A stretch of DNA of 64,000 nucleotides from a virus (IMGVR_UViG_3300009085_000022:1-64000); one strand, 5' to 3'; counted from the stretch's first letter, positions 45,344 through 59,958 are shown. Program-made: numbers and translations. Notes: generated from the letters alone by a model not told the origin.

Positions 45344-47794
45344 TCAGTCACATTTTGAGTAGCCACACTGCTTACAGGATGTGCACCCGCTTTCACTGAC
45401 CAGACTGCCACTACTATTACAATTAGGGCACATACTATTATTACTATTATTTCCATATTTAAGATATTTTTTAAATGTTCTAGCTATTGCTTTAGCAAAA
45501 GATGTAATATCACCTTCGGCTTTATTTAGCTGTTCTACTCCAAATTCAAGTTTAGCACCGTGTCTTAATGCCCATGATACAACTCTTGTAAAAGCCTCTT
45601 CTTCCTGAGTCATATTGTGAGTAATATCTTCAATAACTATTTGATTATCTAATGATATTAAATCATATCTTCCGCCATGAACCCTTCTTAAAATACCATG
45701 TTCTATAGCTACTTTATCTATCTTACCATTAACAGCAAATACCTCATAAGGCAATCCATCTAATAATCCTATAAATACTTTCCAAGGTCTTCCTTTAGCC
45801 ATTATATTATAAACATCACAATATAAATCTTTAGGACGTTTTGGGGCATCATATTGATTAAACTTAGACTGTTGATTTATAGTAAGTATACCTTCTCTAC
45901 TTCCATCTCTATAACAAGTTATACCTTTTAATCCTTTTTCCCAAGCTACAAAATATAAATTAGATACATCTTCTTTTGTAGCAGAACTAGGTAAATTATA
46001 AGTTACACTTATACTATGATCTATCCAAGGTTGAATAACAGATTGAAGTTCAAGTTTTTTAAAAGGATCAATTTCATGAGCAGTTGCTTTACTATAAGGA
46101 GATTCCTCTATCCAAAGCTTTACATCTTCATCTGATAATTCATCTGCTGGAGCAGACGCATGAGCAGTAATTTCTATAAATCTTTTAAATTTAGGATGAA
46201 ATACATCATACTCTTCCCACCAATCTCCTTGTTTATCTTGAATAGTTTTATTAGGATTATCAGCAGTTACTTTACGTTTTCTTTTATAAGATAATGCAAA
46301 CACTGGTTCAATTCCAGAAGAAACTTTAGCTAACATAGAAATACTTCCAGTAGGAGCAATAGTTAAATTGCCTATATTTCTACGTCCTACATGCTCATAT
46401 AATCCATAAACTTCTCTCTCACCACTATCATATAAAGCAGAAAGAACTTTATTTAAATAAGGATGGTCCTTTTCTTTTTCATAATTCCATATAGGAAAGC
46501 AATCTCTTTCAGAAGCTAGAATTATAGACTCTTTATAAGAATTAATAGCTATTACTTTATTAGCCAATTCTGCAAATTTTATAAAAGAATCATCTCCATA
46601 TTTTAATCCTAATGCGGCTCCTGCATCTGCGAGTCCCATTTGACCTAATCCAGTACGTCTGCCTAATAAAAGTTTATCATATACCTTTTGCCATAAAAGT
46701 AATTCTGTGTTTTTAGTATCCTCATCTTCTGGATCTTGTTCGATTTTATAAATAATTTTACTTATTTTTTCTGCTTCTAAATCAATAACATCATCCATTA
46801 ATCTTTGTGCTAATATTACATCTTTTTCTAATGTTAATAAATCATATTTAGAATCAGGCGTAAAAGGATTTAAAACATAGGCATAAAGATTTATTGCAGA
46901 TAATCTACAACTATCATAAGCACATAATGGAAGCTCCCCACAAGGATTTGTCGAAATAGTTTTAAATTCTTCATAACAATCTGCAGGAGATTCAGATATT
47001 ATCTTATCCCAAAACAATACTCCAGGTTCAGCCGATTTCCAAGCTTGATGAATAAGTTTATTCCATAGATCTTTTGATTTTATTAATTTTGCAAATTGCC
47101 CACCAAAAGAATCTTTAGTTAAATAATCATCATTTATCATAGATTTCATAAATTCATCAGTGACTTTTATTGAAATATTAGCTCCTGTAACTTTAGTTAA
47201 ATCATCTTTTAAAGTTATAAAATCTTCTATATCAGGATGATCGACGTTCATTGAAATCATTAAGGCTCCACGTCTTCCTTCTTGTGCTACTTCTCTTGTA
47301 GTATTAGAGAATCTACTTGCAAAAGACACTGCACCAGTAGAGCTATTTGCTGCATTATTAACTTTAGAACGCTTTGGGCGTAGGGTGGAAATATCTATTC
47401 CTACCCCACCCCTGCGTTTCATTAATTGAGCTAATTCTTGATCAGCTTTAAATATACCACCATAACTATCTTTTGGAGAATCTACTACAAAACAATTCCC
47501 AAGAGTAGAAAGAGTAGTACCGTTACCTATACCAAATAAACAGGAACCTCCTAAAACAAATTTATTATAATCTTTAAGAAATTCATAAATAACATCATAA
47601 GCTATAGGATTAGGATATTTTTGTTCTATTCTAGCTAATTCTTTAGCTATTCTTTTAATTGTGTCATCAGGTGATAATTCCAAAAAATTATCTTCATTAG
47701 TTTTTAATGCATATTTATCCAACCACACATTAGCTATTAGTTCATCTTTAAAATAATCTAATGCTTTTTTCTCAACTTCACTTTTTTTATACAT
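45344..47794 (-). CDS. nrdJ: Class II (adenosylcobalamin) ribonucleotide reductase
   Basis: GNCFV, RRGALM, EPGVLF, TNPCGE, RRTGLG, TIAPTGS, KGITCYRDGSR, C-terminal CPNC..CTSCKQCGYSKC; no R2 gene nearby. Confidence 0.9.
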   Translation of the reverse strand: MYKKSEVEKKALDYFKDELIANVWLDKYALKTNEDNFLELSPDDTIKRIAKELARIEQKYPNPIAYDVIYEFLKDYNKFVLGGSCLFGIGNGTTLSTLGNCFVVDSPKDSYGGIFKADQELAQLMKRRGGVGIDISTLRPKRSKVNNAANSSTGAVSFASRFSNTTREVAQEGRRGALMISMNVDHPDIEDFITLKDDLTKVTGANISIKVTDEFMKSMINDDYLTKDSFGGQFAKLIKSKDLWNKLIHQAWKSAEPGVLFWDKIISESPADCYEEFKTISTNPCGELPLCAYDSCRLSAINLYAYVLNPFTPDSKYDLLTLEKDVILAQRLMDDVIDLEAEKISKIIYKIEQDPEDEDTKNTELLLWQKVYDKLLLGRRTGLGQMGLADAGAALGLKYGDDSFIKFAELANKVIAINSYKESIILASERDCFPIWNYEKEKDHPYLNKVLSALYDSGEREVYGLYEHVGRRNIGNLTIAPTGSISMLAKVSSGIEPVFALSYKRKRKVTADNPNKTIQDKQGDWWEEYDVFHPKFKRFIEITAHASAPADELSDEDVKLWIEESPYSKATAHEIDPFKKLELQSVIQPWIDHSISVTYNLPSSATKEDVSNLYFVAWEKGLKGITCYRDGSREGILTINQQSKFNQYDAPKRPKDLYCDVYNIMAKGRPWKVFIGLLDGLPYEVFAVNGKIDKVAIEHGILRRVHGGRYDLISLDNQIVIEDITHNMTQEEEAFTRVVSWALRHGAKLEFGVEQLNKAEGDITSFAKAIARTFKKYLKYGNNSNNSMCPNCNSSGSLVSESGCTSCKQCGYSKCD

Positions 47795-47803
47795 AATATT
47801 AAA

Positions 47804-48895
47804 TTAATATACTAAATTTTTATTCTTAGTTATTGTAGCATGAACCATTATCTCTCCATTGCACTTTTGTAAATCTAAAGGTGCAATATTTGTCTCTCCT
47901 AAATCAAATTGCCTTAAATAAATTTCTGCAGCTTCTAATACATCTAATAAAGCTGGTATGTCCCAATAACCATCTTGAATTCCCCATTCATGGAATTCTC
48001 TATGGCAAGTTTCAGACATTTTAGCAATAATAGGATATTTTGGCACTAATCTACTTATATAAAGAAATCTAAATAAATCAACTGTATAAAAATCAAAAGA
48101 TGGTAACTTATCTATAATTTTAGTTAATCCTTCTTTATATATTACCCCTTGATATCCATATTTATATTTATATAAAGCTGTTTTAACAAAGTTTCTAGGA
48201 TAATCAGAACCGGTTTTAATATCCCAAGGGGAGATAATCTTATTATTATGATCAATATAGATAATATCAATTTTAGATTTAAAGTTCATTCCTTCTAAAT
48301 CAAATTTTATCTTAAATTGATATATTATTTCTACATTGTTCTGTTTTTGTTCATCTTTTGATATAAATAGATGTTTAGACCAAGGATGATTTCTTAACAC
48401 TTCGGCTATATTATAAGCTTCAGTATACATACTCGAAGAAATAATTAATTTATCTCTATTATCTTCAAATATTTTTATGTACTCTGAACATTCTGCTAAT
48501 AATTTTTGCTTTTTAGTATCAACTTTCCAATTAACAGAAGAACCTGTTATATTATAAATATCTTCAATTTGATCATTAGTTAAATTATTTAAATCCGCCC
48601 CCAATCCATTATCTAAAATATAAGTAGAAATTTTTAAAAATTGTTCAGAAGGTTTTAAATCATTTACTAATATTTTAGAATCAACAGATTCAGGTTCAGT
48701 TAACATAATATCAACGACAGACCCAAAATTAAAGTATTCTTTTTCTTCATGTTTTTGTTCTTGTATTAGAACTTCAGGATTATCATAAACATCTTTTATT
48801 CTGGAGTATGATAAACAATTTGATGCTTTATACTCTATATCATCTTTAAAAGATTCTTGTAATTGTAATAAACCATACGGTACAGATTCTTCCAT
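47804..48895 (-). CDS. PD-(D/E)xK exonuclease
   Basis: LSYS..FGS.VD; KSKIDI..DIKT..Y..Q..Y. Confidence 0.8.
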   Translation of the reverse strand: MEESVPYGLLQLQESFKDDIEYKASNCLSYSRIKDVYDNPEVLIQEQKHEEKEYFNFGSVVDIMLTEPESVDSKILVNDLKPSEQFLKISTYILDNGLGADLNNLTNDQIEDIYNITGSSVNWKVDTKKQKLLAECSEYIKIFEDNRDKLIISSSMYTEAYNIAEVLRNHPWSKHLFISKDEQKQNNVEIIYQFKIKFDLEGMNFKSKIDIIYIDHNNKIISPWDIKTGSDYPRNFVKTALYKYKYGYQGVIYKEGLTKIIDKLPSFDFYTVDLFRFLYISRLVPKYPIIAKMSETCHREFHEWGIQDGYWDIPALLDVLEAAEIYLRQFDLGETNIAPLDLQKCNGEIMVHATITKNKNLVY

Positions 48896-49167: not shown

Positions 49168-49857
49168 TTACCATATTATATGAATATTATTAAATTTTAA
49201 TAAATGTTCTCTTATTTTTACAAAATGATCACAATCCCATTCTACATTTTTATAAGCAGAATTAATAGGATGAGAACTTGTAAGTATAGTATTAGAAACT
49301 GGGTAAATATCTCCTATAAAATTTTTAGCGTGTCCGCCCCATAAACAATAAGTTATTCCAGAATTAGTATAACTCAATTTTTGTAATAGTTTTTTTGTAA
49401 AAACTGACCATAATTTTATATGACTTCCAGGTTTACCTTCTTCTACTGTTAAAGCTGTATTTAATAATAGTATACCTTGATTAGCCCATTTTTTTAATGA
49501 TGGATCAAAATCAAAATTATGGCCATGATAAATAGTTTTACTTACGGTATCTTTTACAATTTGTAAAGAAGCACTTAGTATAGGAGTACGAGATTCATTA
49601 GCCAGTGCAATTCCTGTTGCAGACCCATTATAATATGGATCTTGCAACAAGATTACAACTGATAAATTTCTATAAGGGCACTCTTTAAAAGCTCTAAATA
49701 CATTCTTTTGTTCTGGGTAAATTTTAGGACCCATATTATCTTTAGTAAATTTATAATATTCATTTACTGTATTTAAATTTACAATAATTTCGTTATCACT
49801 AAAAATAGTTTGGAAAAACGGTTCCCAATCTCCTACCAAATCTGTTAATGTGGTCAT
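49168..49857 (-). CDS. ung: Uracil-DNA glycosylase (family 1)
   Basis: VVILLQDPY, WANQGILLLNTALTV, SH..LW, LWG..A, SHP. Confidence 0.9.
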   Translation of the reverse strand: MTTLTDLVGDWEPFFQTIFSDNEIIVNLNTVNEYYKFTKDNMGPKIYPEQKNVFRAFKECPYRNLSVVILLQDPYYNGSATGIALANESRTPILSASLQIVKDTVSKTIYHGHNFDFDPSLKKWANQGILLLNTALTVEEGKPGSHIKLWSVFTKKLLQKLSYTNSGITYCLWGGHAKNFIGDIYPVSNTILTSSHPINSAYKNVEWDCDHFVKIREHLLKFNNIHIIW

Positions 49858-51311
49858 ACAAAAGGTGTTAGTGTATATAAATCTTTGTTTGAATGCTCCA
49901 TAAGTATTTCAGCTTCTCCTACATTATCTTGCCTTTTAGAATAATGTTTTTTTCTTTCTTCAATGTATCTAATTAAAATATTAGAAACTTCATCAGGATA
50001 GAACTCTGTTAAAATAATTTTTAAATTTATAGGAGATATATCCTTTAATTCAGTAGTTCCTAATAAAGTTTGATACTTTTTAGCATAAGCAAGAATAGCC
50101 ATTGTAATATAAATCCAATTAATTACTTTTTGGTCATTCATTGTAGGCACATGACACCGAAACTCAATAGTCTCTTTTTTACCCCATAATAAAGGTACAA
50201 GATTAAGCCAATAGTATCTACTGTTAACTTCCCATTTGTGTTGACCATCTCTATCTAAAGGATGTTGTCCTGTTGGAAATCTGCCTGAAAATTCATTACC
50301 AGAGCTTAACCAGTGATAAATCACTTTAAAGATTTCATTAGTATCTGTTAAAGTAGCTCCTAAATTTGGTAATGGATTACAATAAGATTTTCTTTTAAAG
50401 TTAGAAGTGTCTACATAATAGTAAGGAAATAATTTGTAAATTTCATCTTCAATTAATTGACCTAATCTGAATATAGATACTATACCCTTTACAGTTTTTG
50501 GATAACCGCCTAAATGTATATGTAATGATTCTAAAGGAGAGCAACTACAGTATTTAAAAAGTAGTTTACAATTCTTTTTTATAGCTTGTATACCTTCTTT
50601 ACCAAATAAAGGAATTGTTACATATTCAAATCCTGATATACTACCATCTTTACAAGCGATTAAACCATTAGGTTTTAATAAATTTTCAGGTATAGCACCT
50701 TTTTCAGTTTCAAATTCAACACCAAAAGTAAATCCTAGTTTCTCGATTAATTTATAATTATCAGATAATAAACTATCTCCAACAAAGTTTTCTTTAAAAT
50801 ATTTAGAAAATTCTGCAATAAGATTATCACTATTATAATTTAAGGGAAAAGAATAGTAATTGTCTTTTCTAGGTTTTAACTTTATATTAAATTCTTTAGG
50901 AATATTAGCTTCTGTTGTACAGTAATAATAGCCATTTAACCCTTCAGCAATATTAGGAATCTTATTTACAATATCTATACTTAAAATAGTTCTAAGTTTA
51001 CCTTGAATGAAAATCTTAGTATTACGTAATCTATTTGAAGTAAATTTTCCAAAAGTGATTCCTTCATCCCAAGTCCAATCTACAATTCCTTCTACTACTC
51101 TTTCGTTATTATTTAAAAGTTTCCAGAGATTGTATTCATAATCATAAAAAATATATCCACTATTTACCCTGTACCACTTATCATTTATTAAAAAGCATTG
51201 TTTATTTTTAATATAAAAATTGCCTTTAATAAACCTACATTCCTTTCGGATTGCTGGTGTACCATCATAAGTTTTTATCAACTGCTCCATAGCTTCAATT
51301 AAATACTTCAT
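49854..51311 (-). CDS. Putative amidoligase (COOH-NH2 ligase, glutamine-synthetase-like fold)
   Basis: FGVEFET, DGSISGFEYVT, LHIHLG, RYYWLNL, TIEFR. Confidence 0.85.
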   Translation of the reverse strand: MKYLIEAMEQLIKTYDGTPAIRKECRFIKGNFYIKNKQCFLINDKWYRVNSGYIFYDYEYNLWKLLNNNERVVEGIVDWTWDEGITFGKFTSNRLRNTKIFIQGKLRTILSIDIVNKIPNIAEGLNGYYYCTTEANIPKEFNIKLKPRKDNYYSFPLNYNSDNLIAEFSKYFKENFVGDSLLSDNYKLIEKLGFTFGVEFETEKGAIPENLLKPNGLIACKDGSISGFEYVTIPLFGKEGIQAIKKNCKLLFKYCSCSPLESLHIHLGGYPKTVKGIVSIFRLGQLIEDEIYKLFPYYYVDTSNFKRKSYCNPLPNLGATLTDTNEIFKVIYHWLSSGNEFSGRFPTGQHPLDRDGQHKWEVNSRYYWLNLVPLLWGKKETIEFRCHVPTMNDQKVINWIYITMAILAYAKKYQTLLGTTELKDISPINLKIILTEFYPDEVSNILIRYIEERKKHYSKRQDNVGEAEILMEHSNKDLYTLTPFV

Positions 51312-53310
51312 AATTTACTTCTTTTTCTAATAAAGTTGCTAAAGTTTTTTTACAGGCATTACAATCAGTACAACTATGAAATGTAAAATGATTTTTATGC
51401 TCACAAGTTGAACACGCTCCTCTTACAGAATTTGTAAAATCTCTTAGAAAATGGATTAACATTAACTGTATACTCTTTTCGTCTTTTAAACTAGATGTAG
51501 CTAATAAAATATTTTGAAAAGGTGAAAAAGGATTATCCATATTCTCTAAGTTATATAATCTGTATCCTACTATATATTCACTAGTTTTTGTAACACTCAT
51601 TTTACAATCACTAAAATACAAATTTACTAGTCCTTGATCATCACTGGAATGTGTAGCTGTTTTACTTTCTTTTTTAGTGTCTATTATAGAAACTAAATCT
51701 CCTTTATCAAAAGTATATTCTTTATTTGAAAACAAAGGAGCAAAAGATCCAGTATAGTACATATCAAAACTATCTTCTTTATTAAAATGATCACGACAAT
51801 CTTGTTCCCCATATGTATCAGTTAAAGATACAGTAGGATAAGCTGAATATTTAGTTATTTTTGAGGTAAAATCTTGTTCCTCGCTTTCTAAATAAATAGG
51901 ATTTTGTTTTAAATCCATCATAAAATCTTCATGGATTTTTAATGCTTTTTTATAGGCAAGTATACCATCCATCATAATACCTTCAATAAAATAATAGATT
52001 TTTAATATAGCAATATCTTTAGTATACCTACCAGGAATTGCTCCTAGTACGTTTAAAGGATATATACCATGCATTAATCCTTTATTCATCCAGAATCTAC
52101 CTTTATTAAAGACAGCTCTTTTTAATCCTTTAGTAAGAAAATCATTATTTATTTCAGCTTGTAATCTAACTGGCTCATCTATATGAAGTTTTCTAATAAA
52201 AATATGCAGATTTTTATGAAATTCCGCAATTCTTTCTAAATTATCGTGTCTTCCTATTACATTATATTTAGTTGGTATTGCCGGTAATGAATTTTTACCT
52301 TCACTATATTTAAAAGGTAAATCATCCCAATCTTTATGATTTGCAAATCCAAAATGTGCATATAAATTTCTATGCTTATTCCAATTAATTGAATTATCCT
52401 TATATTTAGTTTTATCGTATACGTAAGGAGTATTCTGCAAACAGTTAGACCTATCTATTAAATTATTGCCAACTAATATTCCTTGTTTAAAAACAAATAA
52501 AGTATTTGTAGCAAGATCTATAATAAATTCATTAGTACCTCCTATAAATTTTAAAGATTCTTCTATTGAAGAAAAATAAATATTATTAGGCCCGATTGTC
52601 CAGGTAAATAAGGGACGTTCTTCTGAAACTACTTTAGAATAATCTTGTGCTTTGGATTCGCCTTTAAATATATAAGTTTTGCCAGTAATATGATTTTGCC
52701 AAACAAGGGCAGCAGTTCCAACATATTTAGTTAAAACATCGTGATTACCATAAAATAAGATACTTAACAATACTTTAGAATCATTATGGTCTTCTAAAGA
52801 GATACCATAACTAGTAGCTAATTCTTTATAATTATCAATAGTTCCATTATGAATGCCAGAAAAAACAATATCATCATTTTGTAAATCTTTAATAGCTTTT
52901 TTTAAATGAGTATCCTTAATGGCTTTCATATTAAGATCTTTCTTTCTAAGAATTATAGGTTGAGCATACATATCTGCTTTACCGCCAGAAGAGGCTTTTC
53001 TACTATGTCCTAATACAGTATTACTAATAATAGGTACAGTAGGGCTTTTAACTTCTTGTACAAATTCATTATAAGTTTTTAATTTATCTAACCCATATTC
53101 ACAAGAATTGTTAAACACTCTACCACAAGCATCACCCCCTCTTTTATCATTAATATACCCTAAAATATTAAATTTATCCCATGAAAAATTAGTATTAGGA
53201 TCTGTACCAATAAACCCAAATAGTCCACAACCATATATAATATAAGGGTCATTAGTAACAAAAAAGTTAATAATACCTATTATCCATATTAATATTAATA
53301 ATATTTTCAT
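51295..53310 (-). CDS. Class II (Ntn) glutamine amidotransferase with hydrophobic leader
   Basis: C28GLFG, RGGDACG, GHSRKAS, HNGTI.N, DS; C-terminal Cys cluster. Confidence 0.85.
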   Translation of the reverse strand: MKILLILIWIIGIINFFVTNDPYIIYGCGLFGFIGTDPNTNFSWDKFNILGYINDKRGGDACGRVFNNSCEYGLDKLKTYNEFVQEVKSPTVPIISNTVLGHSRKASSGGKADMYAQPIILRKKDLNMKAIKDTHLKKAIKDLQNDDIVFSGIHNGTIDNYKELATSYGISLEDHNDSKVLLSILFYGNHDVLTKYVGTAALVWQNHITGKTYIFKGESKAQDYSKVVSEERPLFTWTIGPNNIYFSSIEESLKFIGGTNEFIIDLATNTLFVFKQGILVGNNLIDRSNCLQNTPYVYDKTKYKDNSINWNKHRNLYAHFGFANHKDWDDLPFKYSEGKNSLPAIPTKYNVIGRHDNLERIAEFHKNLHIFIRKLHIDEPVRLQAEINNDFLTKGLKRAVFNKGRFWMNKGLMHGIYPLNVLGAIPGRYTKDIAILKIYYFIEGIMMDGILAYKKALKIHEDFMMDLKQNPIYLESEEQDFTSKITKYSAYPTVSLTDTYGEQDCRDHFNKEDSFDMYYTGSFAPLFSNKEYTFDKGDLVSIIDTKKESKTATHSSDDQGLVNLYFSDCKMSVTKTSEYIVGYRLYNLENMDNPFSPFQNILLATSSLKDEKSIQLMLIHFLRDFTNSVRGACSTCEHKNHFTFHSCTDCNACKKTLATLLEKEVNYEVFN

Positions 53311-54173
53311 AAATCTTTAATTTCATTAAATGTTTGTTTCAAATTTTCATAATTTTTAAAAGATTGTAAAAGACTTTTAAATAGAAGTTTCATATCTGAT
53401 ATTAAATCTGATGTGATATAGGATTTATTATACAAGACATACAAATCTTCTTTAGTACATAGATTGATAAAACTTTCTATTTTCATAACTTGATCCCATA
53501 CCCAAGATAAATGTTGTTCCTGGGTGTAATAGCTACTTAAAGTTCTACATTCTACTCCATATGTTTTACTTCTGATAACTCCCCATCTGCCATATGTTTT
53601 AATTCTTTCTATCTCAGGTTTAATTTCATGTGACGGTATAGTAAGAAATAAATCAAATAATCTTCCTATCATAATATCAGTATATATTTTACCATCATTT
53701 CCTTTAAGTATGGGCTCATCATATCCTATATGAATATGAAATCCAGCTACTCTAAATTTATAATTATCTAAACGAGGAGTTGCTTTAGTTTCAAATCCAG
53801 TATACATATTACTTAACCAGGTATCAATAACTGTAGAACAACCAAAATCACAAGCTTCTCTGGTTTTAAGATACCTTTTAGCAAAATATTCTACACCATT
53901 AGGAGATAATGAATATCCTACTGGAGTTACTTTATCACTAAAATATTTTCTTATTTTAACCATATTACTTACAAATTCTTGTCTTGTATAAGCTTTTGGG
54001 ATATTACCTTCAAAAGAAATATTATCTAATTGTTCAAAATATCCTTCTCCTAATTCATTAATAGCTGAAGGATTATCTTTAGTTCCTTTTGCAAATAAAG
54101 TTGCCGGAAAAGGTTGTCCTTTTGGGTCATACACGAAAAATTCAGGATCAGATCCTAATGTTATAAACTTCAT
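53307..54173 (-). CDS. phiEco32-like COOH-NH2 ligase type 2
   Basis: LGSDPEFF, GTKDNP, DNISFE, FGC, AGFHIHIG, R...YG, YGVECRTLS. Confidence 0.9.
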   Translation of the reverse strand: MKFITLGSDPEFFVYDPKGQPFPATLFAKGTKDNPSAINELGEGYFEQLDNISFEGNIPKAYTRQEFVSNMVKIRKYFSDKVTPVGYSLSPNGVEYFAKRYLKTREACDFGCSTVIDTWLSNMYTGFETKATPRLDNYKFRVAGFHIHIGYDEPILKGNDGKIYTDIMIGRLFDLFLTIPSHEIKPEIERIKTYGRWGVIRSKTYGVECRTLSSYYTQEQHLSWVWDQVMKIESFINLCTKEDLYVLYNKSYITSDLISDMKLLFKSLLQSFKNYENLKQTFNEIKDL

Positions 54174-55444
54174 AGTTCATCAATATTAAAATTAGATTTT
54201 TTATACCTTCTTATTCTTTCATCATCTCCTTTAATAAAGAAAAAATCATCCTGTTCTGATTCTATTGAATACGTACTTTTTAATTTTAAATTGATAAACC
54301 TTGTAAGTTTTTCTGGTTTTAAAGTTAAAATATTAACAGAACCTAATATAATTTTACATAATTCTTCAATATTCTCATTCTTATATAAAGCAATGATTTT
54401 ATTTTGTATTACTGGAGAATAGTTTTGTTGTAATTTACGAAAAAAATCATTAGAAGAATCACTTGAATAATTTTTAATAAGTTTTTCAAATTTTTCTTTA
54501 GATAGTAGTTTAAAACGCCTTACTCCAGTTAGCCACCAATACTCATATATACTAAATCCCATTTGAGCTATTAATATAGCATTCCAGAAATATAAATCAG
54601 GTTTAAGTTCTTTTACTCTATAATACTGATTTACAAAAATATTTAATTCTGGAGAAATTCCAGCTCTAATAAAATGATGTATTAGGTAGCTTTCTAAAGA
54701 ATAAGTTCTTTTAGTATGTAATACTTTTAATATTATACGATCATGAAGTTCAGTACTCTGAAAAAGAATTTGTGATGTTAAATACTTTTCATTAGAATAT
54801 AAAATTTCTTTTACATATTGATAAAAATTATCACCATTTATGTTAATTTCAGATAGATAAATATAAACCTCGTTACTATAATTATTTTTAAAAAAACTTC
54901 GATATCTGCTTTTTTTATCAAGTAAATTTTTAATTTTTAGATTATTAAGATAATATTCAAAAGCTTCTAAAATAGTAATAGGTTTTACCAAAGTTTTATA
55001 TACTTGTAAAAAGTCCTCTAATATAAAATATAAATCAATAATTTCATAATTATCTTTTGTTTTTAAAGTAATCAGTTTACCTGTTTCATTGCTAAAATTA
55101 GTATATTCTAAATGTTTTGATTTATGATGATCACTACTTGGAACAAGATTTTCTTTTAATTCAAGATAAGAACTTTCTGGTAAAATTTCAAGATCTAATG
55201 TTGGAAAATTAGGTTTAAGTTCTTCTATCCAACGTGTAAAATCTTCTCTATTAACTCCTAAAGGTAAAATATAAAACCAGTTCGATTTAGTATTTCTAAC
55301 TTCTCTGGTACAGGATATACTATCATAAGTATATCTAGTACCTTTTTTTAAAGAAGTTTCTTTAGTTTTTATATAATCTAAATATATTGTACTTTTATAT
55401 CTTTGATATGTACAGTCTAATGGATCATATACAAGTTTATGCAT
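54170..55444 (-). CDS. Hypothetical protein in the ligase operon, C-terminal SH3-like module
   Basis: 424 aa; ends LKLKSTYSI..FFIKGDDERIRRYKKSNF. Confidence 0.65.
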   Translation of the reverse strand: MHKLVYDPLDCTYQRYKSTIYLDYIKTKETSLKKGTRYTYDSISCTREVRNTKSNWFYILPLGVNREDFTRWIEELKPNFPTLDLEILPESSYLELKENLVPSSDHHKSKHLEYTNFSNETGKLITLKTKDNYEIIDLYFILEDFLQVYKTLVKPITILEAFEYYLNNLKIKNLLDKKSRYRSFFKNNYSNEVYIYLSEININGDNFYQYVKEILYSNEKYLTSQILFQSTELHDRIILKVLHTKRTYSLESYLIHHFIRAGISPELNIFVNQYYRVKELKPDLYFWNAILIAQMGFSIYEYWWLTGVRRFKLLSKEKFEKLIKNYSSDSSNDFFRKLQQNYSPVIQNKIIALYKNENIEELCKIILGSVNILTLKPEKLTRFINLKLKSTYSIESEQDDFFFIKGDDERIRRYKKSNFNIDEL

Positions 55445-56270
55445 ACCCTTTATTATTTATTAATTTTGTTATAACTTCTTTATATTTGATAATGCCTAAA
55501 TCTCCTAATGCTGGGGCACTGTTTATTTCGCATACTATAAATTTTGGATCTCTTTGCGTATTAGATTGTACTCTGATATCTACTGCACCAATATCTAAAC
55601 CAGTAGAATTAACACAATTACAGGCTGCTTTTTCCATCTCTTTCCAACATCTTGGACGATCAAATAGTTTATGATCTTCTCCTACCCAATTGGAATTAAT
55701 AGAATTAAAAAACCATCTTTCTTTAGCATCTTTAGTCCTAAGTTTACGCCACGATAAAAATACTCCTATATCTTTAGCTACATGTAATCTATATTCTCTG
55801 GCATAATTATAGAACTTTTCAAAGTACCAACCATCAAAATTACCTTCAAAATGGCGATGTTTAGTTATCCAGGCTTTTAATTCTTCTTGATTATTAATCA
55901 ATTCCATTCCTCTTCCCTGAAATCCAAATATTCTTTTAATTACGATTGGAAAATCCATTCCTTCTATACCAGTAATATCAGATACAGTTTGAAAACCAGT
56001 TTTTTTTATAGTTGGGATATCAATATCTATACACCATTCTGCCTGTGGAACTTTTAATTGTTTAAAACACTCCTTCATACGAAGTTTTGATCTACTATTT
56101 TGGATAGCATCTATTGTATTAATTTCAATAATACCTGGGATTCTACCAAAAATTTTTTCAGTTTTAGTCAAAGATCCTAATCTTACAATTGCTTTAAAAT
56201 CAGTTAATATTGATTTTCTTAATGGTTTTGCAGTAAAATTAGCAGTACGAACTCTAGCAAATCTTTTCAT
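55437..56270 (-). CDS. ATP-grasp peptide ligase
   Basis: FPIVIK..G.QGRGM, EYRLHV, DIGAVDI, CEINSAP. Confidence 0.9.
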   Translation of the reverse strand: MKRFARVRTANFTAKPLRKSILTDFKAIVRLGSLTKTEKIFGRIPGIIEINTIDAIQNSRSKLRMKECFKQLKVPQAEWCIDIDIPTIKKTGFQTVSDITGIEGMDFPIVIKRIFGFQGRGMELINNQEELKAWITKHRHFEGNFDGWYFEKFYNYAREYRLHVAKDIGVFLSWRKLRTKDAKERWFFNSINSNWVGEDHKLFDRPRCWKEMEKAACNCVNSTGLDIGAVDIRVQSNTQRDPKFIVCEINSAPALGDLGIIKYKEVITKLINNKGYA

Positions 56271-56662
56271 CTATTAGGTAGTTTTGTTTTAAAATAAGTT
56301 TTCCAATCTCCAGATTCAACAAAATTTCTGGAATTTTTATGTATATTATTATATACATATATATAAGCCTTGCCAAATTCAGTATCGATTTCTAATCTAT
56401 CATACATACCGAATTTAGGGTTAGTAGCTACAAATCCTTCTAAGCGATCTAATCGTTTTAAGGTATTCTCATCTACTTCATACACTTCTCCTTTTATTTC
56501 AATAGGATTATCATTATTTAAGATAACACCAGGAAACCAACCTAAGTCTACCATAGAAAAAAGCTTGGGGCTTTTTGTTTCCCCAAGCTTTGTACTTTCA
56601 ACTAATAAACCATGATTTCCTAATCCACTTAATAATGAGCCATAAACAAATACTTTATTCAT
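56267..56662 (-). CDS. Gamma-glutamylcyclotransferase (AIG2-like)
   Basis: VFVYGSL, GEVYEV, LDRLEG, SGDW. Confidence 0.92.
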   Translation of the reverse strand: MNKVFVYGSLLSGLGNHGLLVESTKLGETKSPKLFSMVDLGWFPGVILNNDNPIEIKGEVYEVDENTLKRLDRLEGFVATNPKFGMYDRLEIDTEFGKAYIYVYNNIHKNSRNFVESGDWKTYFKTKLPNR

Positions 56663-56666
56663 TATT

Positions 56667-57401
56667 CTAATTTTCTTTAATTTCTACTTGAATAAATTGT
56701 TCAACTTCATTATTCTTAGACCTTTGAAGTAATTCTAAGATAATATAATCTCCTAATGGATCATTATGAAGCTCTTCTGGATGGTATTGTAACCCATATA
56801 TAGGCAATCTTCGATGTCTGAATACTTCAATATTTGGATTCTTTTTACCAGAATAAACTCCCAGTATTTCTAATGTATGATCAGGAAAATTATATGTTGA
56901 TACACATTGATGGTGCATAGAATTAACTTTAATTCTTCCTTTACCATTAGCTCTTTCATATTCAGTTTTAAAAGTCGAAGGAACTAATTCTATATCATGT
57001 ACTGTATCAAATCTGGTTTTATCATTAGTTTCATGAAACATATGCTGAATTAATTTTGCTCCATATAAAACAGCAAGACTTTGACAACCACGACAAATTC
57101 CTAGTACGCTGATGCCTAATGCAATATACTCAGGTAATATCTGAGTATCCATATATTCTTTTATTGGATCAGGTTTTGATGTGTAAAAATGAGGAATAGC
57201 ATTATATCTTCCAGGATCAACATCTGCACCACCTGGGACAACTATTAAATCAATTCTTTCGTCCACAGGTTCTTCTGGTGATATTATTCTAACATTGCCA
57301 AATCCTCCTAAATATTCCATATAGGCAATACTAGACCCAAAACTATTATCTCCAGTTTTCCAACCAAACAGTCCGATTAAAGGTGTTTCATTTTGTGGCA
57401 T
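56667..57401 (-). CDS. Class I glutamine amidotransferase / peptidase C26 (PuuD-like)
   Basis: PGGADVDP, GICRGCQ, VNSMHHQ, QYHPE. Confidence 0.92.
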   Translation of the reverse strand: MPQNETPLIGLFGWKTGDNSFGSSIAYMEYLGGFGNVRIISPEEPVDERIDLIVVPGGADVDPGRYNAIPHFYTSKPDPIKEYMDTQILPEYIALGISVLGICRGCQSLAVLYGAKLIQHMFHETNDKTRFDTVHDIELVPSTFKTEYERANGKGRIKVNSMHHQCVSTYNFPDHTLEILGVYSGKKNPNIEVFRHRRLPIYGLQYHPEELHNDPLGDYIILELLQRSKNNEVEQFIQVEIKEN

Positions 57402-57403
57402 AA

Positions 57404-57745
57404 TTATATCGTTTTATAAGTAGGTATATTAAATCCTATTTTTAAAGAAGTACTGTCAACTAATGTAAATTGTTTTACACAATCTATAAAAGTTTTAACT
57501 CCAAGATCAGTAGTTGATACTGGTATTACAGTTTTTCCTGTAATTTTATTTGAATATAACCTACCTTCTGCTTTTGCTCTACCGACTTTTTTTGCAAAAG
57601 TATCTTTAGGACTGCATAATGCAATACTAAGTTTAAGAAAATTCTTTGATTTTCTTAGGATTCTTTTCTCTGTAGAATAAAGTCCTGCAATAGTAAACCG
57701 TTGATTATCAACAGTTGTACCGTGAAAAAATAACACATTTTCCAT
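57404..57745 (-). CDS. Conserved phage hypothetical protein
   Basis: ALCSPKDTFAKKVGRAKAEGRL motif. Confidence 0.7.
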   Translation of the reverse strand: MENVLFFHGTTVDNQRFTIAGLYSTEKRILRKSKNFLKLSIALCSPKDTFAKKVGRAKAEGRLYSNKITGKTVIPVSTTDLGVKTFIDCVKQFTLVDSTSLKIGFNIPTYKTI

Positions 57746-58974: not shown

Positions 58975-59958
58975 TTAATTATTTAAAAGATTGTTAATTT
59001 CTTCTACAGCTTTTAATACTCCAATTTTTTTAATTAAATCTGTAAAATCTTTGCATTCAAATTCTATAGGTATAAATCTACTAGGAATATTATACATATT
59101 AAAATAAGAATTAGCTTGTTCCATTCCTTGAGTATCATTATCAAATAATGTAATAATTTTACTAAATCTTATTTTATATTCATCTACAACAGAATCTTTA
59201 ATAAAACAAGTTTCTGATTGTATAGCTATAGAAGGAATTCTCATATTTTCATATAAAGCCATTACATCTTTTAATGATTTTGTAATGATAAGTAGTTTGC
59301 CTCTTTTAGGTAATTGAGTATAACCTGAATGTACTCCATAAGGATGATTATTACGCCATTTCTTACGTTTATTAGCAAAAGGACGATATATCTTAAAAGT
59401 TAAATTATTGTCTTTATATTCAATATATGCATATGCTATTCCAGGAGTATCAACATAGAAAGAGTTATGAAAATACCCTGATATGGGCTTTACATTATAT
59501 AAATTTAAAGTATTTAGTGATATACCAAATTCTTGCCAATATATTATATCTCGTTGTTCCCAAGGTCTAGCTACAATATCCAATTTACAAACTTCTTTAG
59601 CTTTTAAATCTATAGTTTTAGATAGTTTAGATGTTGATGTAGATGATTGTATTAAATCTCCATATATTTTTTGGATAGTCTCATGATAAGAAGACATGCC
59701 TAATAAATTCATTACAAAAATTATACAATCTCCTCTTCTACCAGCAAAATCTTTAAACAACAAACAATTATTACGCTTTGAATAAAATATATTAAAACTT
59801 GGAATTTCATCTCCTCTTCTTAATGGACTATTATATGTTTGTCCTAATTCAAAGTCTCCTATATAATACTTAAAAATCTCCTGTTCTGAGAACCTATTTA
59901 ATAATTGATCTTTAGTAATAAACTCAGTATTATATTTTGATTCATTTAGATTTACCAT
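58975..59958 (-). CDS. crAss-like DNA primase (TOPRIM)
   Basis: SPLR..D..PSF..FKDF..GDC; KIYRP..KW; ITKSLKDVM; FDND..G; KDFTD. Confidence 0.88.
   Translation of the reverse strand: MVNLNESKYNTEFITKDQLLNRFSEQEIFKYYIGDFELGQTYNSPLRRGDEIPSFNIFYSKRNNCLLFKDFAGRRGDCIIFVMNLLGMSSYHETIQKIYGDLIQSSTSTSKLSKTIDLKAKEVCKLDIVARPWEQRDIIYWQEFGISLNTLNLYNVKPISGYFHNSFYVDTPGIAYAYIEYKDNNLTFKIYRPFANKRKKWRNNHPYGVHSGYTQLPKRGKLLIITKSLKDVMALYENMRIPSIAIQSETCFIKDSVVDEYKIRFSKIITLFDNDTQGMEQANSYFNMYNIPSRFIPIEFECKDFTDLIKKIGVLKAVEEINNLLNN

Follow-up and report, generated by a model that had tools for sequence, protein, structure and literature searches.

We analysed a 64,000-nucleotide stretch of virus DNA (IMGVR_UViG_3300009085_000022:1-64000, hereafter the window), which covers the first 64 kb of a virus genome of 102,176 bp (complete, with terminal repeats), and describe here a block of seven genes, g1 to g7, encoding predicted amide-bond ligases, class-I and class-II glutamine amidotransferases, a gamma-glutamylamine cyclotransferase and a protein outside the described families. 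Calling of open reading frames (ORFs) placed all seven on the minus strand, co-directional and running from position 57401 to 49854 in the order of transcription:

56667–57401, minus strand: g1 (244 aa), class-I glutamine amidotransferase / peptidase C26 fold
56267–56662, minus strand: g2 (131 aa), AIG2-like gamma-glutamylamine cyclotransferase (GGACT family)
55437–56270, minus strand: g3 (277 aa), RimK/LysX/cyanophycin-synthetase-like ATP-grasp amino-acid ligase
54170–55444, minus strand: g4 (424 aa), lineage-specific, from a small new protein family, in a variable slot after the ATP-grasp gene
53307–54173, minus strand: g5 (288 aa), phiEco32-type COOH-NH2 ligase type 2 (glutamine-synthetase/GCS2-like carboxylate-amine ligase)
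51295–53310, minus strand: g6 (671 aa), class-II (N-terminal nucleophile, Ntn) glutamine amidotransferase with a C-terminal domain without known fold
49854–51311, minus strand: g7 (485 aa), Amidoligase_2 (glutamine-synthetase-like, GS-like)

An earlier note on this DNA had described seven contiguous, mostly overlapping genes, six of them with enzyme assignments and one coding for a 424-aa protein without a family, and both the layout and every assignment were borne out (Pfam, PHROG). Five of the six internal junctions overlap by 4–17 nt (g2/g3, 4 nt; g3/g4, 8 nt; g4/g5, 4 nt; g5/g6, 4 nt; g6/g7, 17 nt), the remaining one, g1/g2, being a 4-nt gap. The seven genes are the crAss-like copy of the amidoligase cassette of phages of the phiEco32, LUZ24 and RIO-1 types, and the relation that the note had drawn to the phiEco32-type cluster is therefore sound, since the same families occur in both. 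The label of crAss-like phage also holds, because a 1451-aa virion protein matches Crassvirales only (83 records, 25–31% identity); judged by this protein, the genome is that of a crAss-like phage of a divergent lineage.

Catalytic residues were judged by aligning each enzyme with six to eight divergent homologues from five or six phage lineages. Protein g1 matched Peptidase_C26 (PF07722, 8.6e-24), GATase (PF00117, 1.8e-13) and PHROG 7218; its triad Cys103-His207-Glu209 was invariant in seven homologues, and its nearest solved relatives were GMP synthase subunit A, Lin1909 and TrpG. The top NCBIfam match of g1, gamma-glutamyl-CDP-amidate hydrolase, scored 39.7 bits against a cut-off of 250, and g1 could be a glutaminase subunit or a gamma-glutamyl hydrolase, two roles that the sequence does not separate. 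The cyclotransferase g2 (GGACT, PF06094, 6.8e-23, 81.9 bits; PHROG 2520) carries the YGSL motif and the catalytic Glu75, with Y7, G8 and E75 invariant, and is closest among solved structures to Escherichia coli YtfP (2.4e-12). For g3, the Pfam models RimK and CPSase_L_D2 gave matches at about 8e-6 (RimK 26 bits, cut-off 21) and PHROG 2599 one at 3.8e-23, while the top solved match of its profile was RimK (7qys, 7.7e-11), followed by CphA, LysX and ArgX. Residues E159, R161, D231, E248 and N250 of g3 were invariant, E248 and N250 being the Mg/ATP ligands, and by these matches the protein is RimK-like at the superfamily level only.

The two GS-like ligases matched PHROG 3815 (g5, 1.4e-39) and PHROG 2443 (g7, 6.8e-27), and g7 also matched Amidoligase_2 (PF12224) with 32.1 bits (32.7 in the whole-genome search; cut-off 22). 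Invariant residues were E11, E55, H146, H148, E208 and R210 in g5 (eight homologues, including those of phages PaP3 and Asterion) and E199, E201, H264, H266, E383 and R385 in g7, forming ExE, HxH and ExR motifs. The Amidoligase_2 catalytic domain of g7 spans residues ~195–410 and is preceded by a conserved N-terminal domain without assigned function (residues 1 to ~195); sequence profile searches found no solved relative of g5 or g7. The amidotransferase g6 matched GATase_6 (PF13522, 3.9e-7, 30.6 bits, cut-off 27) over residues 98–214, within an Ntn domain that extends from residue 28 to ~300, and its C28, R104, N155-G156 and D177 were invariant in seven homologues. The possibility, raised in the earlier note, that catalytic residues might prove degenerate was thus checked for each enzyme and, because the expected residues are all kept and invariant across the aligned homologues, the six enzymes look active. 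That note had also spoken of a non-ribosomal peptide operon, a term that fails in the sense of non-ribosomal peptide synthetases, because Pfam found no A, C or T domains in the seven proteins and the ligases are of the ATP-grasp and GS-like types.

As a side observation on the g7 family, Bacteroides thetaiotaomicron was the only one of 14 control genomes with a PF12224 match over the cut-off; members of the Amidoligase_2 family are thus present in bacteria of the phylum to which the host likely belongs.

A profile of the crAss-type Amidoligase_2 retrieved at least 177 relatives from IMG/VR, of which the best 80 loci were analysed; single-sequence searches for related loci with g4 or g5 gave no match, so that profiles were needed. 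Genes were assigned by hidden Markov models built from our own alignments, and the census comprised the 65 loci with a complete primase-to-exonuclease interval, the exonuclease boundary being present in 65/65 by construction. All genes of the interval were co-directional in every locus. ATP-grasp, Ntn amidotransferase and Amidoligase_2 genes were each present in 65/65, the primase lay ahead of the cassette in 65/65, and in all 65 the Ntn gene stood directly upstream of the Amidoligase_2 gene. The COOH-NH2 ligase was found in 62/65 loci, C26/GATase-I in 59/65 (0–3 copies) and the gamma-glutamylcyclotransferase (GGCT) in 48/65 (0–2 copies), with a uracil-DNA glycosylase (UDG) gene after the cassette in 44/65. 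Co-occurrence across crAss-like relatives, which the earlier note had left to be mapped, is not due to chance, because 65 complete loci of relatives show these genes again, in unchanged order. The three ligases, two classes of glutaminase and gamma-Glu eraser that it had listed for this copy turned out to be an ordinary composition (C26 in 59 and GGCT in 48 of the 65), and C26 and GGCT are usual crAss-like members, not additions. The census indicates that a large crAss-like clade passes on the cassette at a constant position, with the primase before it and the exonuclease, often preceded by UDG, after it. In a curated phage collection searched with tblastn, only Cellulophaga phage phi14:2 and phage cr108_1, among many crAss-like genomes, carry the cassette, which on these searches is therefore an accessory module of one large crAss-like clade and not universal.

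In several IMG/VR loci, single genes were represented by two adjacent ORFs: the COOH-NH2 ligase gene in L046, L047, L062, L064, L066 and L071, and the C26 gene in L022, L025, L031 and L039. These splits may be frameshifts, assembly errors or decay, and would hint that single members are dispensable.

Around the cassette, the following genes were found in the window:

58975–59958, minus strand: DNA primase (Toprim; PHROG 12622, 2.2e-57), upstream flank, outside the cassette
57404–57745, minus strand: g0, a 113-aa upstream gene
49168–49857, minus strand: UDG (Pfam PF03167, 5.7e-9), downstream flank, outside the cassette
47804–48895, minus strand: PD-(D/E)XK exonuclease (DUF3799), downstream flank
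45344–47794, minus strand: ribonucleotide reductase (RNR; Ribonuc_red_lgC, 7.3e-84), downstream flank

The stop codon of g7 overlaps the start of the UDG gene by 4 nt, and the cassette belongs to a tightly packed leftward array made up of the primase, several small ORFs, the cassette, UDG, the PD-(D/E)XK exonuclease and RNR. A terminator scan found no minus-strand terminator within 44.5–60.5 kb, and promoter-like sites around the cassette occurred at chance frequency in a promoter scan. The operon of the earlier note thus stands as a set of co-directional, overlapping genes but not as a free-standing unit: the cassette is a block inside a larger array. Likewise, its seat among replication genes was correctly reported but is no novelty, the cassette having been described among transcription and replication genes in other podoviruses (PMC5498523).

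We considered g0 as an eighth member or a substrate of the cassette and rejected it, since it was detected inside only 1/65 primase-to-exonuclease intervals and in L007 and L010 the primase separates it from the cassette; g0 is linked to the primase region rather than to the cassette. It holds a conserved HG.T.D.RRFTIAG ... C S..D.F..K.GR.KA motif, whereas its tail is not conserved; the copies in three related contigs are 39–43% identical, and comparison with Pfam, PHROG, NCBIfam and PDB gave no match. At the C-terminus of the RNR large subunit (45344–47794) there is a TSCPD domain (Pfam, 4.6e-5).

The Ntn amidotransferase g6 has two further features besides its catalytic domain:

53230–53310, minus strand: leader of 27 residues, hydrophobic and membrane-like, ahead of the catalytic Cys28
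51361–51414, minus strand: four-Cys cluster (C633, C636, C647, C650)

The ATG of g6 overlaps the stop of g5, and 27 mostly hydrophobic residues precede Cys28 (codon at 53227–53229), beside which there is no in-frame ATG, GTG or TTG. The leader reaches a maximal 15-residue Kyte-Doolittle mean of 2.91, a value attained by 0.26% of random stop-free peptides of equal base composition and by 0/2304 other 27-residue windows of the cassette proteins, so that it is the sole membrane-like segment in the cassette. A catalytic-Cys motif was recognisable in 76 crAss-like Ntn enzymes. Of these, 31 bear a leader of 22–57 residues, in which a membrane-like stretch is combined with a spacer that is polar or basic, and 45 begin with Met-Cys, without any leader. 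The leader is present in phi14:2 and absent from cr108_1, Leptolyngbya phage Lbo-JY46 and PaP3, and a GGCT gene accompanies it in 29 of the 31 leader-bearing loci, as compared with 26 of the 45 leaderless ones. Ntn enzymes require a free N-terminal Cys, and propeptides are known in Bacillus subtilis PurF and glutamate synthase. The catalytic Cys being residue 28, the 27-residue leader of g6 must come off for Ntn activity, and self-processing is plausible. The leader suggests a membrane-anchored zymogen. A lipoprotein (lipobox) reading of it was rejected on two grounds: between the hydrophobic stretch and the Cys lies a spacer that is polar and acidic, and a lipidated Cys would be expected to be lost as nucleophile.

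The C-terminal ~370 residues of g6 (the domain spans ~300–671) comprise a conserved core and the four terminal Cys, invariant in seven homologues. No solved relative of g6, C-terminal domain included, was found by sequence in PDB, and the AlphaFold2 (AF2) model of the C-terminal part was unusable (predicted local distance difference test, pLDDT, 39). The CxxC ... CxxC cluster is followed by a tail of ~20 residues ending in a conserved (N/D)-Y-x-(V/I/L)-(F/Y), and the cluster and this end may be a zinc ribbon and a docking tail.

In the slot after the ATP-grasp gene, g4 contains two regions that stand out:

54350–54727, minus strand: conserved helical core of g4 (residues ~240–365)
54173–54343, minus strand: C-terminal SH3-like barrel of g4 (residues 368–424)

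No Pfam, PHROG or NCBIfam family accounts for g4. A word-indexed search of 5.8 billion proteins returned one relative, and an exhaustive HMMER search of 1.84 billion cluster representatives returned 37, all of 470 aa or less and with no fused forms. Conservation is concentrated in the C-terminal half, with Y253, R260, Q273, Y274, K278, F286, W287, W304, T306, R309 and Y354 invariant; the C-terminal tails of the family are not conserved. An AF2 model from 26 sequences (pLDDT 81.8; predicted template modelling score, pTM, 0.73) consists of an N-terminal alpha/beta domain, the helical core and the SH3-like barrel. There were no PDB matches by sequence, and Foldseek found no fold match in PDB and BFVD at E<=1e-3, the PDB E-values being 0.18 or worse. 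A wide VIA-align search gave a best Z of 6.7 (KH-like) and of ~5.7 (SH3-like), which is the range of common arrangements, and barely covered the core (~265–367); in the comparison with the ESM Atlas, the Atlas models were of low quality.

The g4 family occurs in 3/65 complete loci, always between the ATP-grasp and COOH-NH2 ligase genes. In comparison with the closest IMG/VR orthologous locus (L006), g4 is 28% identical and the six enzymes are 45–56% identical, and g4 is, on sequence identity, the fastest-evolving member of the cassette. The slot itself, between the ATP-grasp gene and the C26 or COOH-NH2 ligase gene, is hypervariable across crAss-like loci: it holds two paralogues of ~323 aa in 17 loci, proteins of 191 and 242 aa together in seven, two proteins of ~300 aa without assigned function in cr108_1, and nothing in phi14:2. 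The 300-aa slot protein of cr108_1 showed a weak likeness to g4 (Foldseek E 0.022, TM 0.30–0.39), for which hhalign gave no homology support, and neither hhalign nor BLAST revealed any relation of g4 to the slot proteins of other lineages or to a cassette enzyme. Probably, g4 is a non-catalytic, lineage-specific adaptor, scaffold or target-selection component.

These results are, in our view, very probably best explained if the seven genes are a crAss-like version of the phiEco32/LUZ24/RIO-1-type cassette that carries out an ATP-driven amide-bond pathway. From the enzyme families, this pathway would be a multi-step one acting on one acceptor. The acceptor would be peptide-like, and the ATP-grasp ligase g3 would extend one of its carboxylates by an amino acid, most likely glutamate; g5 and g7 would activate carboxylates as acyl-phosphates and join them to an amine or ammonia. 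Hydrolysis of glutamine by g6 would supply ammonia to g7, the two forming a glutamine-dependent amidating enzyme, while g1 might be a second glutaminase, for g5, or a gamma-glutamyl hydrolase used in trimming. The cyclotransferase g2 is predicted to strip a gamma-glutamyl group from an amine as 5-oxoproline, in a trimming or deprotection step, and g4, which has no catalytic signature, may act as a lineage-specific adaptor or scaffold. Such a logic of installing and then removing a group has precedents in the butirosin (BtrJ/BtrG), Puu and ergothioneine pathways, and the 'write/erase gamma-glutamyl/amide' chemistry advanced in the earlier note would be a fair reading of the families. As for the acceptor, a peptide-bearing precursor of the envelope on the inner side of the membrane, such as a peptidoglycan stem peptide, is a tentative choice that we consider possible rather than likely; an envelope target is favoured because the published prediction and the membrane-like g6 propeptide fit it.

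Several points weigh against an amide-bond pathway directed at the envelope. Every chemical step rests on family membership, and some memberships are distant: g3 scored 48 bits (1e-12) with TIGR00768 (rimK_fam), far under the cut-off of 143.4, and g5 scored 22.3 bits (8.8e-5) with Pfam PF14395 (COOH-NH2_lig), under the cut-off of 25. Among small folds, the SH3-like one of the g4 C-terminus is common, and its matches reached a Z of only ~5–6; no peptidoglycan-specific domain (Mur ligase, transpeptidase, amidase) was found in the cassette. Removal of the g6 leader is a prediction, and membrane anchoring of the Ntn enzyme does not appear to be general, because about 45 of the 76 crAss-like enzymes begin directly at Met-Cys. 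A more specific proposal, improbable as a whole, is that the cassette works at the cytoplasmic membrane, with g6 as a membrane-anchored zymogen that cleaves itself at Gly27|Cys28 and becomes active there, g4 as a host-specific adaptor that chooses the acceptor, and a lipid-linked wall precursor or an envelope protein as that acceptor. If it were true, the conserved enzymes would amount to an 'amide-writing' machine that can be re-targeted, and the variability of the slot would reflect an arms race between phage and host.

Other targets were weighed against the envelope. The nearest solved relatives of g3 (RimK, LysX, ArgX and CphA) act on protein or peptide C-termini, and GGACT-family enzymes cleave gamma-glutamyl-amine isopeptides, as would suit a protein-tagging system. 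In such a system, a protein of the host or the phage would receive glutamate or other residues, at its C-terminus or on side chains, from g3 and the GS-fold ligases; GGACT and C26 would be the erasers, and the slot proteins (g4 here) would select the target or be the target. Protein tagging has precedents in RimK on S6, LysX on LysW and PafA with Pup, and the presence of unrelated, fast-evolving slot proteins in each lineage is as expected of a target-recognition part. However, no small tag gene turned up in the window, and the last 20 residues of all its ORFs revealed neither a tail common to them nor an acidic one. The tails of the g4 family vary, g0 has no constant association with the cassette, and the slot of phi14:2 holds no gene; tagging is in our judgement rather unlikely. 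We regard with similar doubt the proposal that the cassette makes a soluble gamma-glutamyl metabolite or peptide, glutathione-like or transiently gamma-glutamyl-protected, that serves as an inhibitor, signal or protectant during infection. Three sequential ligases would suit an assembly line, the BtrJ/BtrG logic is a parallel, a GCS2-type ligase and an ATP-grasp enzyme cooperate in glutathione synthesis, and Ntn (EgtC, DUG3), C26 (GGP1, PuuD) and GGCT enzymes are gamma-glutamyl removers (family knowledge; PMC9804317, PMC12653102). Nevertheless, the cassette contains no exporter, carrier protein or precursor-supply gene, no such metabolite has been reported for any of the hundreds of carrier phages, and the hydrophobic leader of g6 and the variable non-enzymatic slot proteins would be left unexplained.

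The placement between primase and UDG/exonuclease would be explained if the cassette modified DNA, the nucleotide pool or a replisome protein, and it does lie with the primase in 65/65 crAss-like loci and with primase/helicase genes in PaP3 and Asterion. We nonetheless consider a replication-linked role very unlikely: Pfam and PHROG scans covering flanking ORFs within the window revealed no base-hydroxymethylase, pyrophosphorylase, transglycosylase or other DNA-hypermodification family, the enzyme families of the cassette have no known action on nucleic acids, and placement among early or middle genes is common for host-takeover functions (PMC5498523). Auxiliary nitrogen metabolism, whereby the genes would boost host turnover of glutamine, glutamate or amino acids during infection, has been proposed for a phage with amidoligase, amidotransferase, 'glutathione synthase' and GGCT genes (eLife, PMC10945688), on growth effects only. 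For the present cassette it is hardly credible, given the absence of close host homologues and the phage-specific, tightly coupled set of seven genes in conserved order, and bulk assimilation would need neither three distinct ligases nor a cyclotransferase.

The gene cassette itself is already known and is not a new system. In 2009, Iyer, Abhiman, Burroughs and Aravind (Mol Biosyst 5:1636) reportedly predicted the phiEco32-type cassette. The earlier note had taken its product to be unresolved, in agreement with the searchable literature from 2017 to 2025, in which we found no experimental product and which cites only the 2009 prediction; the same is true of papers on the cassette from 2023–2025, and PMC10580990 cites this prediction for the phage amidoligase cassette. 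Duhaime et al. (2017) used the name 'peptidoglycan modification cassette' and listed as carriers phiEco32, 7-11, PA11, tf, MR299-2, LUZ24, PaP3, CW02 and RIO-1 (PMC5498523), and Hardies et al. (2013, 2016) wrote of an 'operon metabolizing gamma-glutamyl amide linkages' (PMC4819975). By tblastn, the COOH-NH2 ligase matched 311 phage records, chiefly LUZ24/PaP3-like, phiEco32-like and Vibrio phages, and versions of the cassette in shuffled order were found in Pseudomonas phage PaP3, Klebsiella phage Asterion and Leptolyngbya phage Lbo-JY46. In Lbo-JY46 (L003, 2748–6957), genes with the annotations PncB (nicotinate phosphoribosyltransferase) and PrsA (PRPP synthetase) stand directly ahead of the cassette, which contains up to three C26-like genes and a 536-aa ATP-grasp protein with an extra C-terminal domain.

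What is new is the census of 65 crAss-like loci, with the fixed seat of the cassette and the invariant adjacency of the Ntn and Amidoligase_2 genes; the recognition of g4 as a small, fast-evolving family in a variable slot; and the membrane-like leader on about 40% of crAss-like Ntn enzymes. Three leads follow: a step of glutamine-dependent amidation is suggested by the constant pairing of Ntn and Amidoligase_2, the membrane by the propeptide, which the cultured phi14:2 has as well, and a host-specific component by the hypervariable slot that comes after the ATP-grasp gene. With 311 phage records and at least 177 IMG/VR contigs, the cassette is among the most widespread phage enzyme modules without a known product, and solving this product once would annotate thousands of genes. 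Since the Cellulophaga host of phi14:2 can be cultured, this phage provides a crAss-like system for direct testing.

The closest known counterparts are those of phi14:2 (g037–g041, NC_021806), where GGCT, ATP-grasp, COOH-NH2 ligase, amidotransferase and amidoligase genes are annotated, and of cr108_1 (gp028–gp034, NC_055878), and the cassette is consequently not special to the phage of the window. Both share the order primase, cassette, UDG, exonuclease and RNR, and their enzymes are 31–38% identical to the copies in the window; phi14:2 has no C26 gene, and cr108_1 has no GGCT gene and an Ntn enzyme that begins with Met-Cys. A blastn comparison of the whole region with phages gave only a 147-bp match, to phi14:2. 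The cassette of phiEco32, LUZ24/PaP3 and RIO-1 consists of the same families, namely PF14395, PF12224, a RimK-like ATP-grasp, a class-II amidotransferase, AIG2/GGACT and a class-I/C26 enzyme, likewise as co-directional genes among early and replication genes. However, tblastn reached the podovirus copies through the COOH-NH2 ligase only: the crAss-type ATP-grasp matched few non-crAss records, and weakly, and the crAss-type Ntn and Amidoligase_2 matched nothing beyond phi14:2, cr108_1 and Lbo-JY46. The crAss-type proteins also differ from those of the podoviruses in the ~195-aa N-terminal domain of Amidoligase_2, in the long C-terminal domain of the Ntn enzyme and, in this lineage, in its hydrophobic leader, and g4 is absent from the podovirus cassettes examined.

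Among cellular systems, g3 has the ATP-grasp fold in common with RimK (S6 poly-glutamylase), LysX/ArgX (acting on the LysW C-terminus) and cyanophycin synthetase, whose ATP- and Mg-binding residues it keeps, but no S6-like or LysW-like substrate gene lies near the cassette. In butirosin biosynthesis, the ATP-grasp enzyme BtrJ installs a gamma-glutamyl group that the GGCT-like BtrG removes. The pairs BtrJ/BtrG, PuuA/PuuD and EgtA/EgtC each combine an ATP-dependent gamma-glutamyl ligase with a GGCT-like, C26 or Ntn remover, in bacterial small-molecule pathways whose substrates are known and some of which use carrier proteins. A set of three ligases and two amidotransferases is not known from the butirosin, Puu and Egt pathways, and the likeness to them is seen at the superfamily level. 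The MurT/GatD enzyme is built from other folds, MurT having the Mur-ligase fold and GatD being class-I, and no sequence relation to g5, g6 or g7 was found, but it follows the same logic, an ATP-dependent ligase and a glutaminase that together amidate the stem-peptide carboxylate of lipid II at the membrane (PMC6085368).

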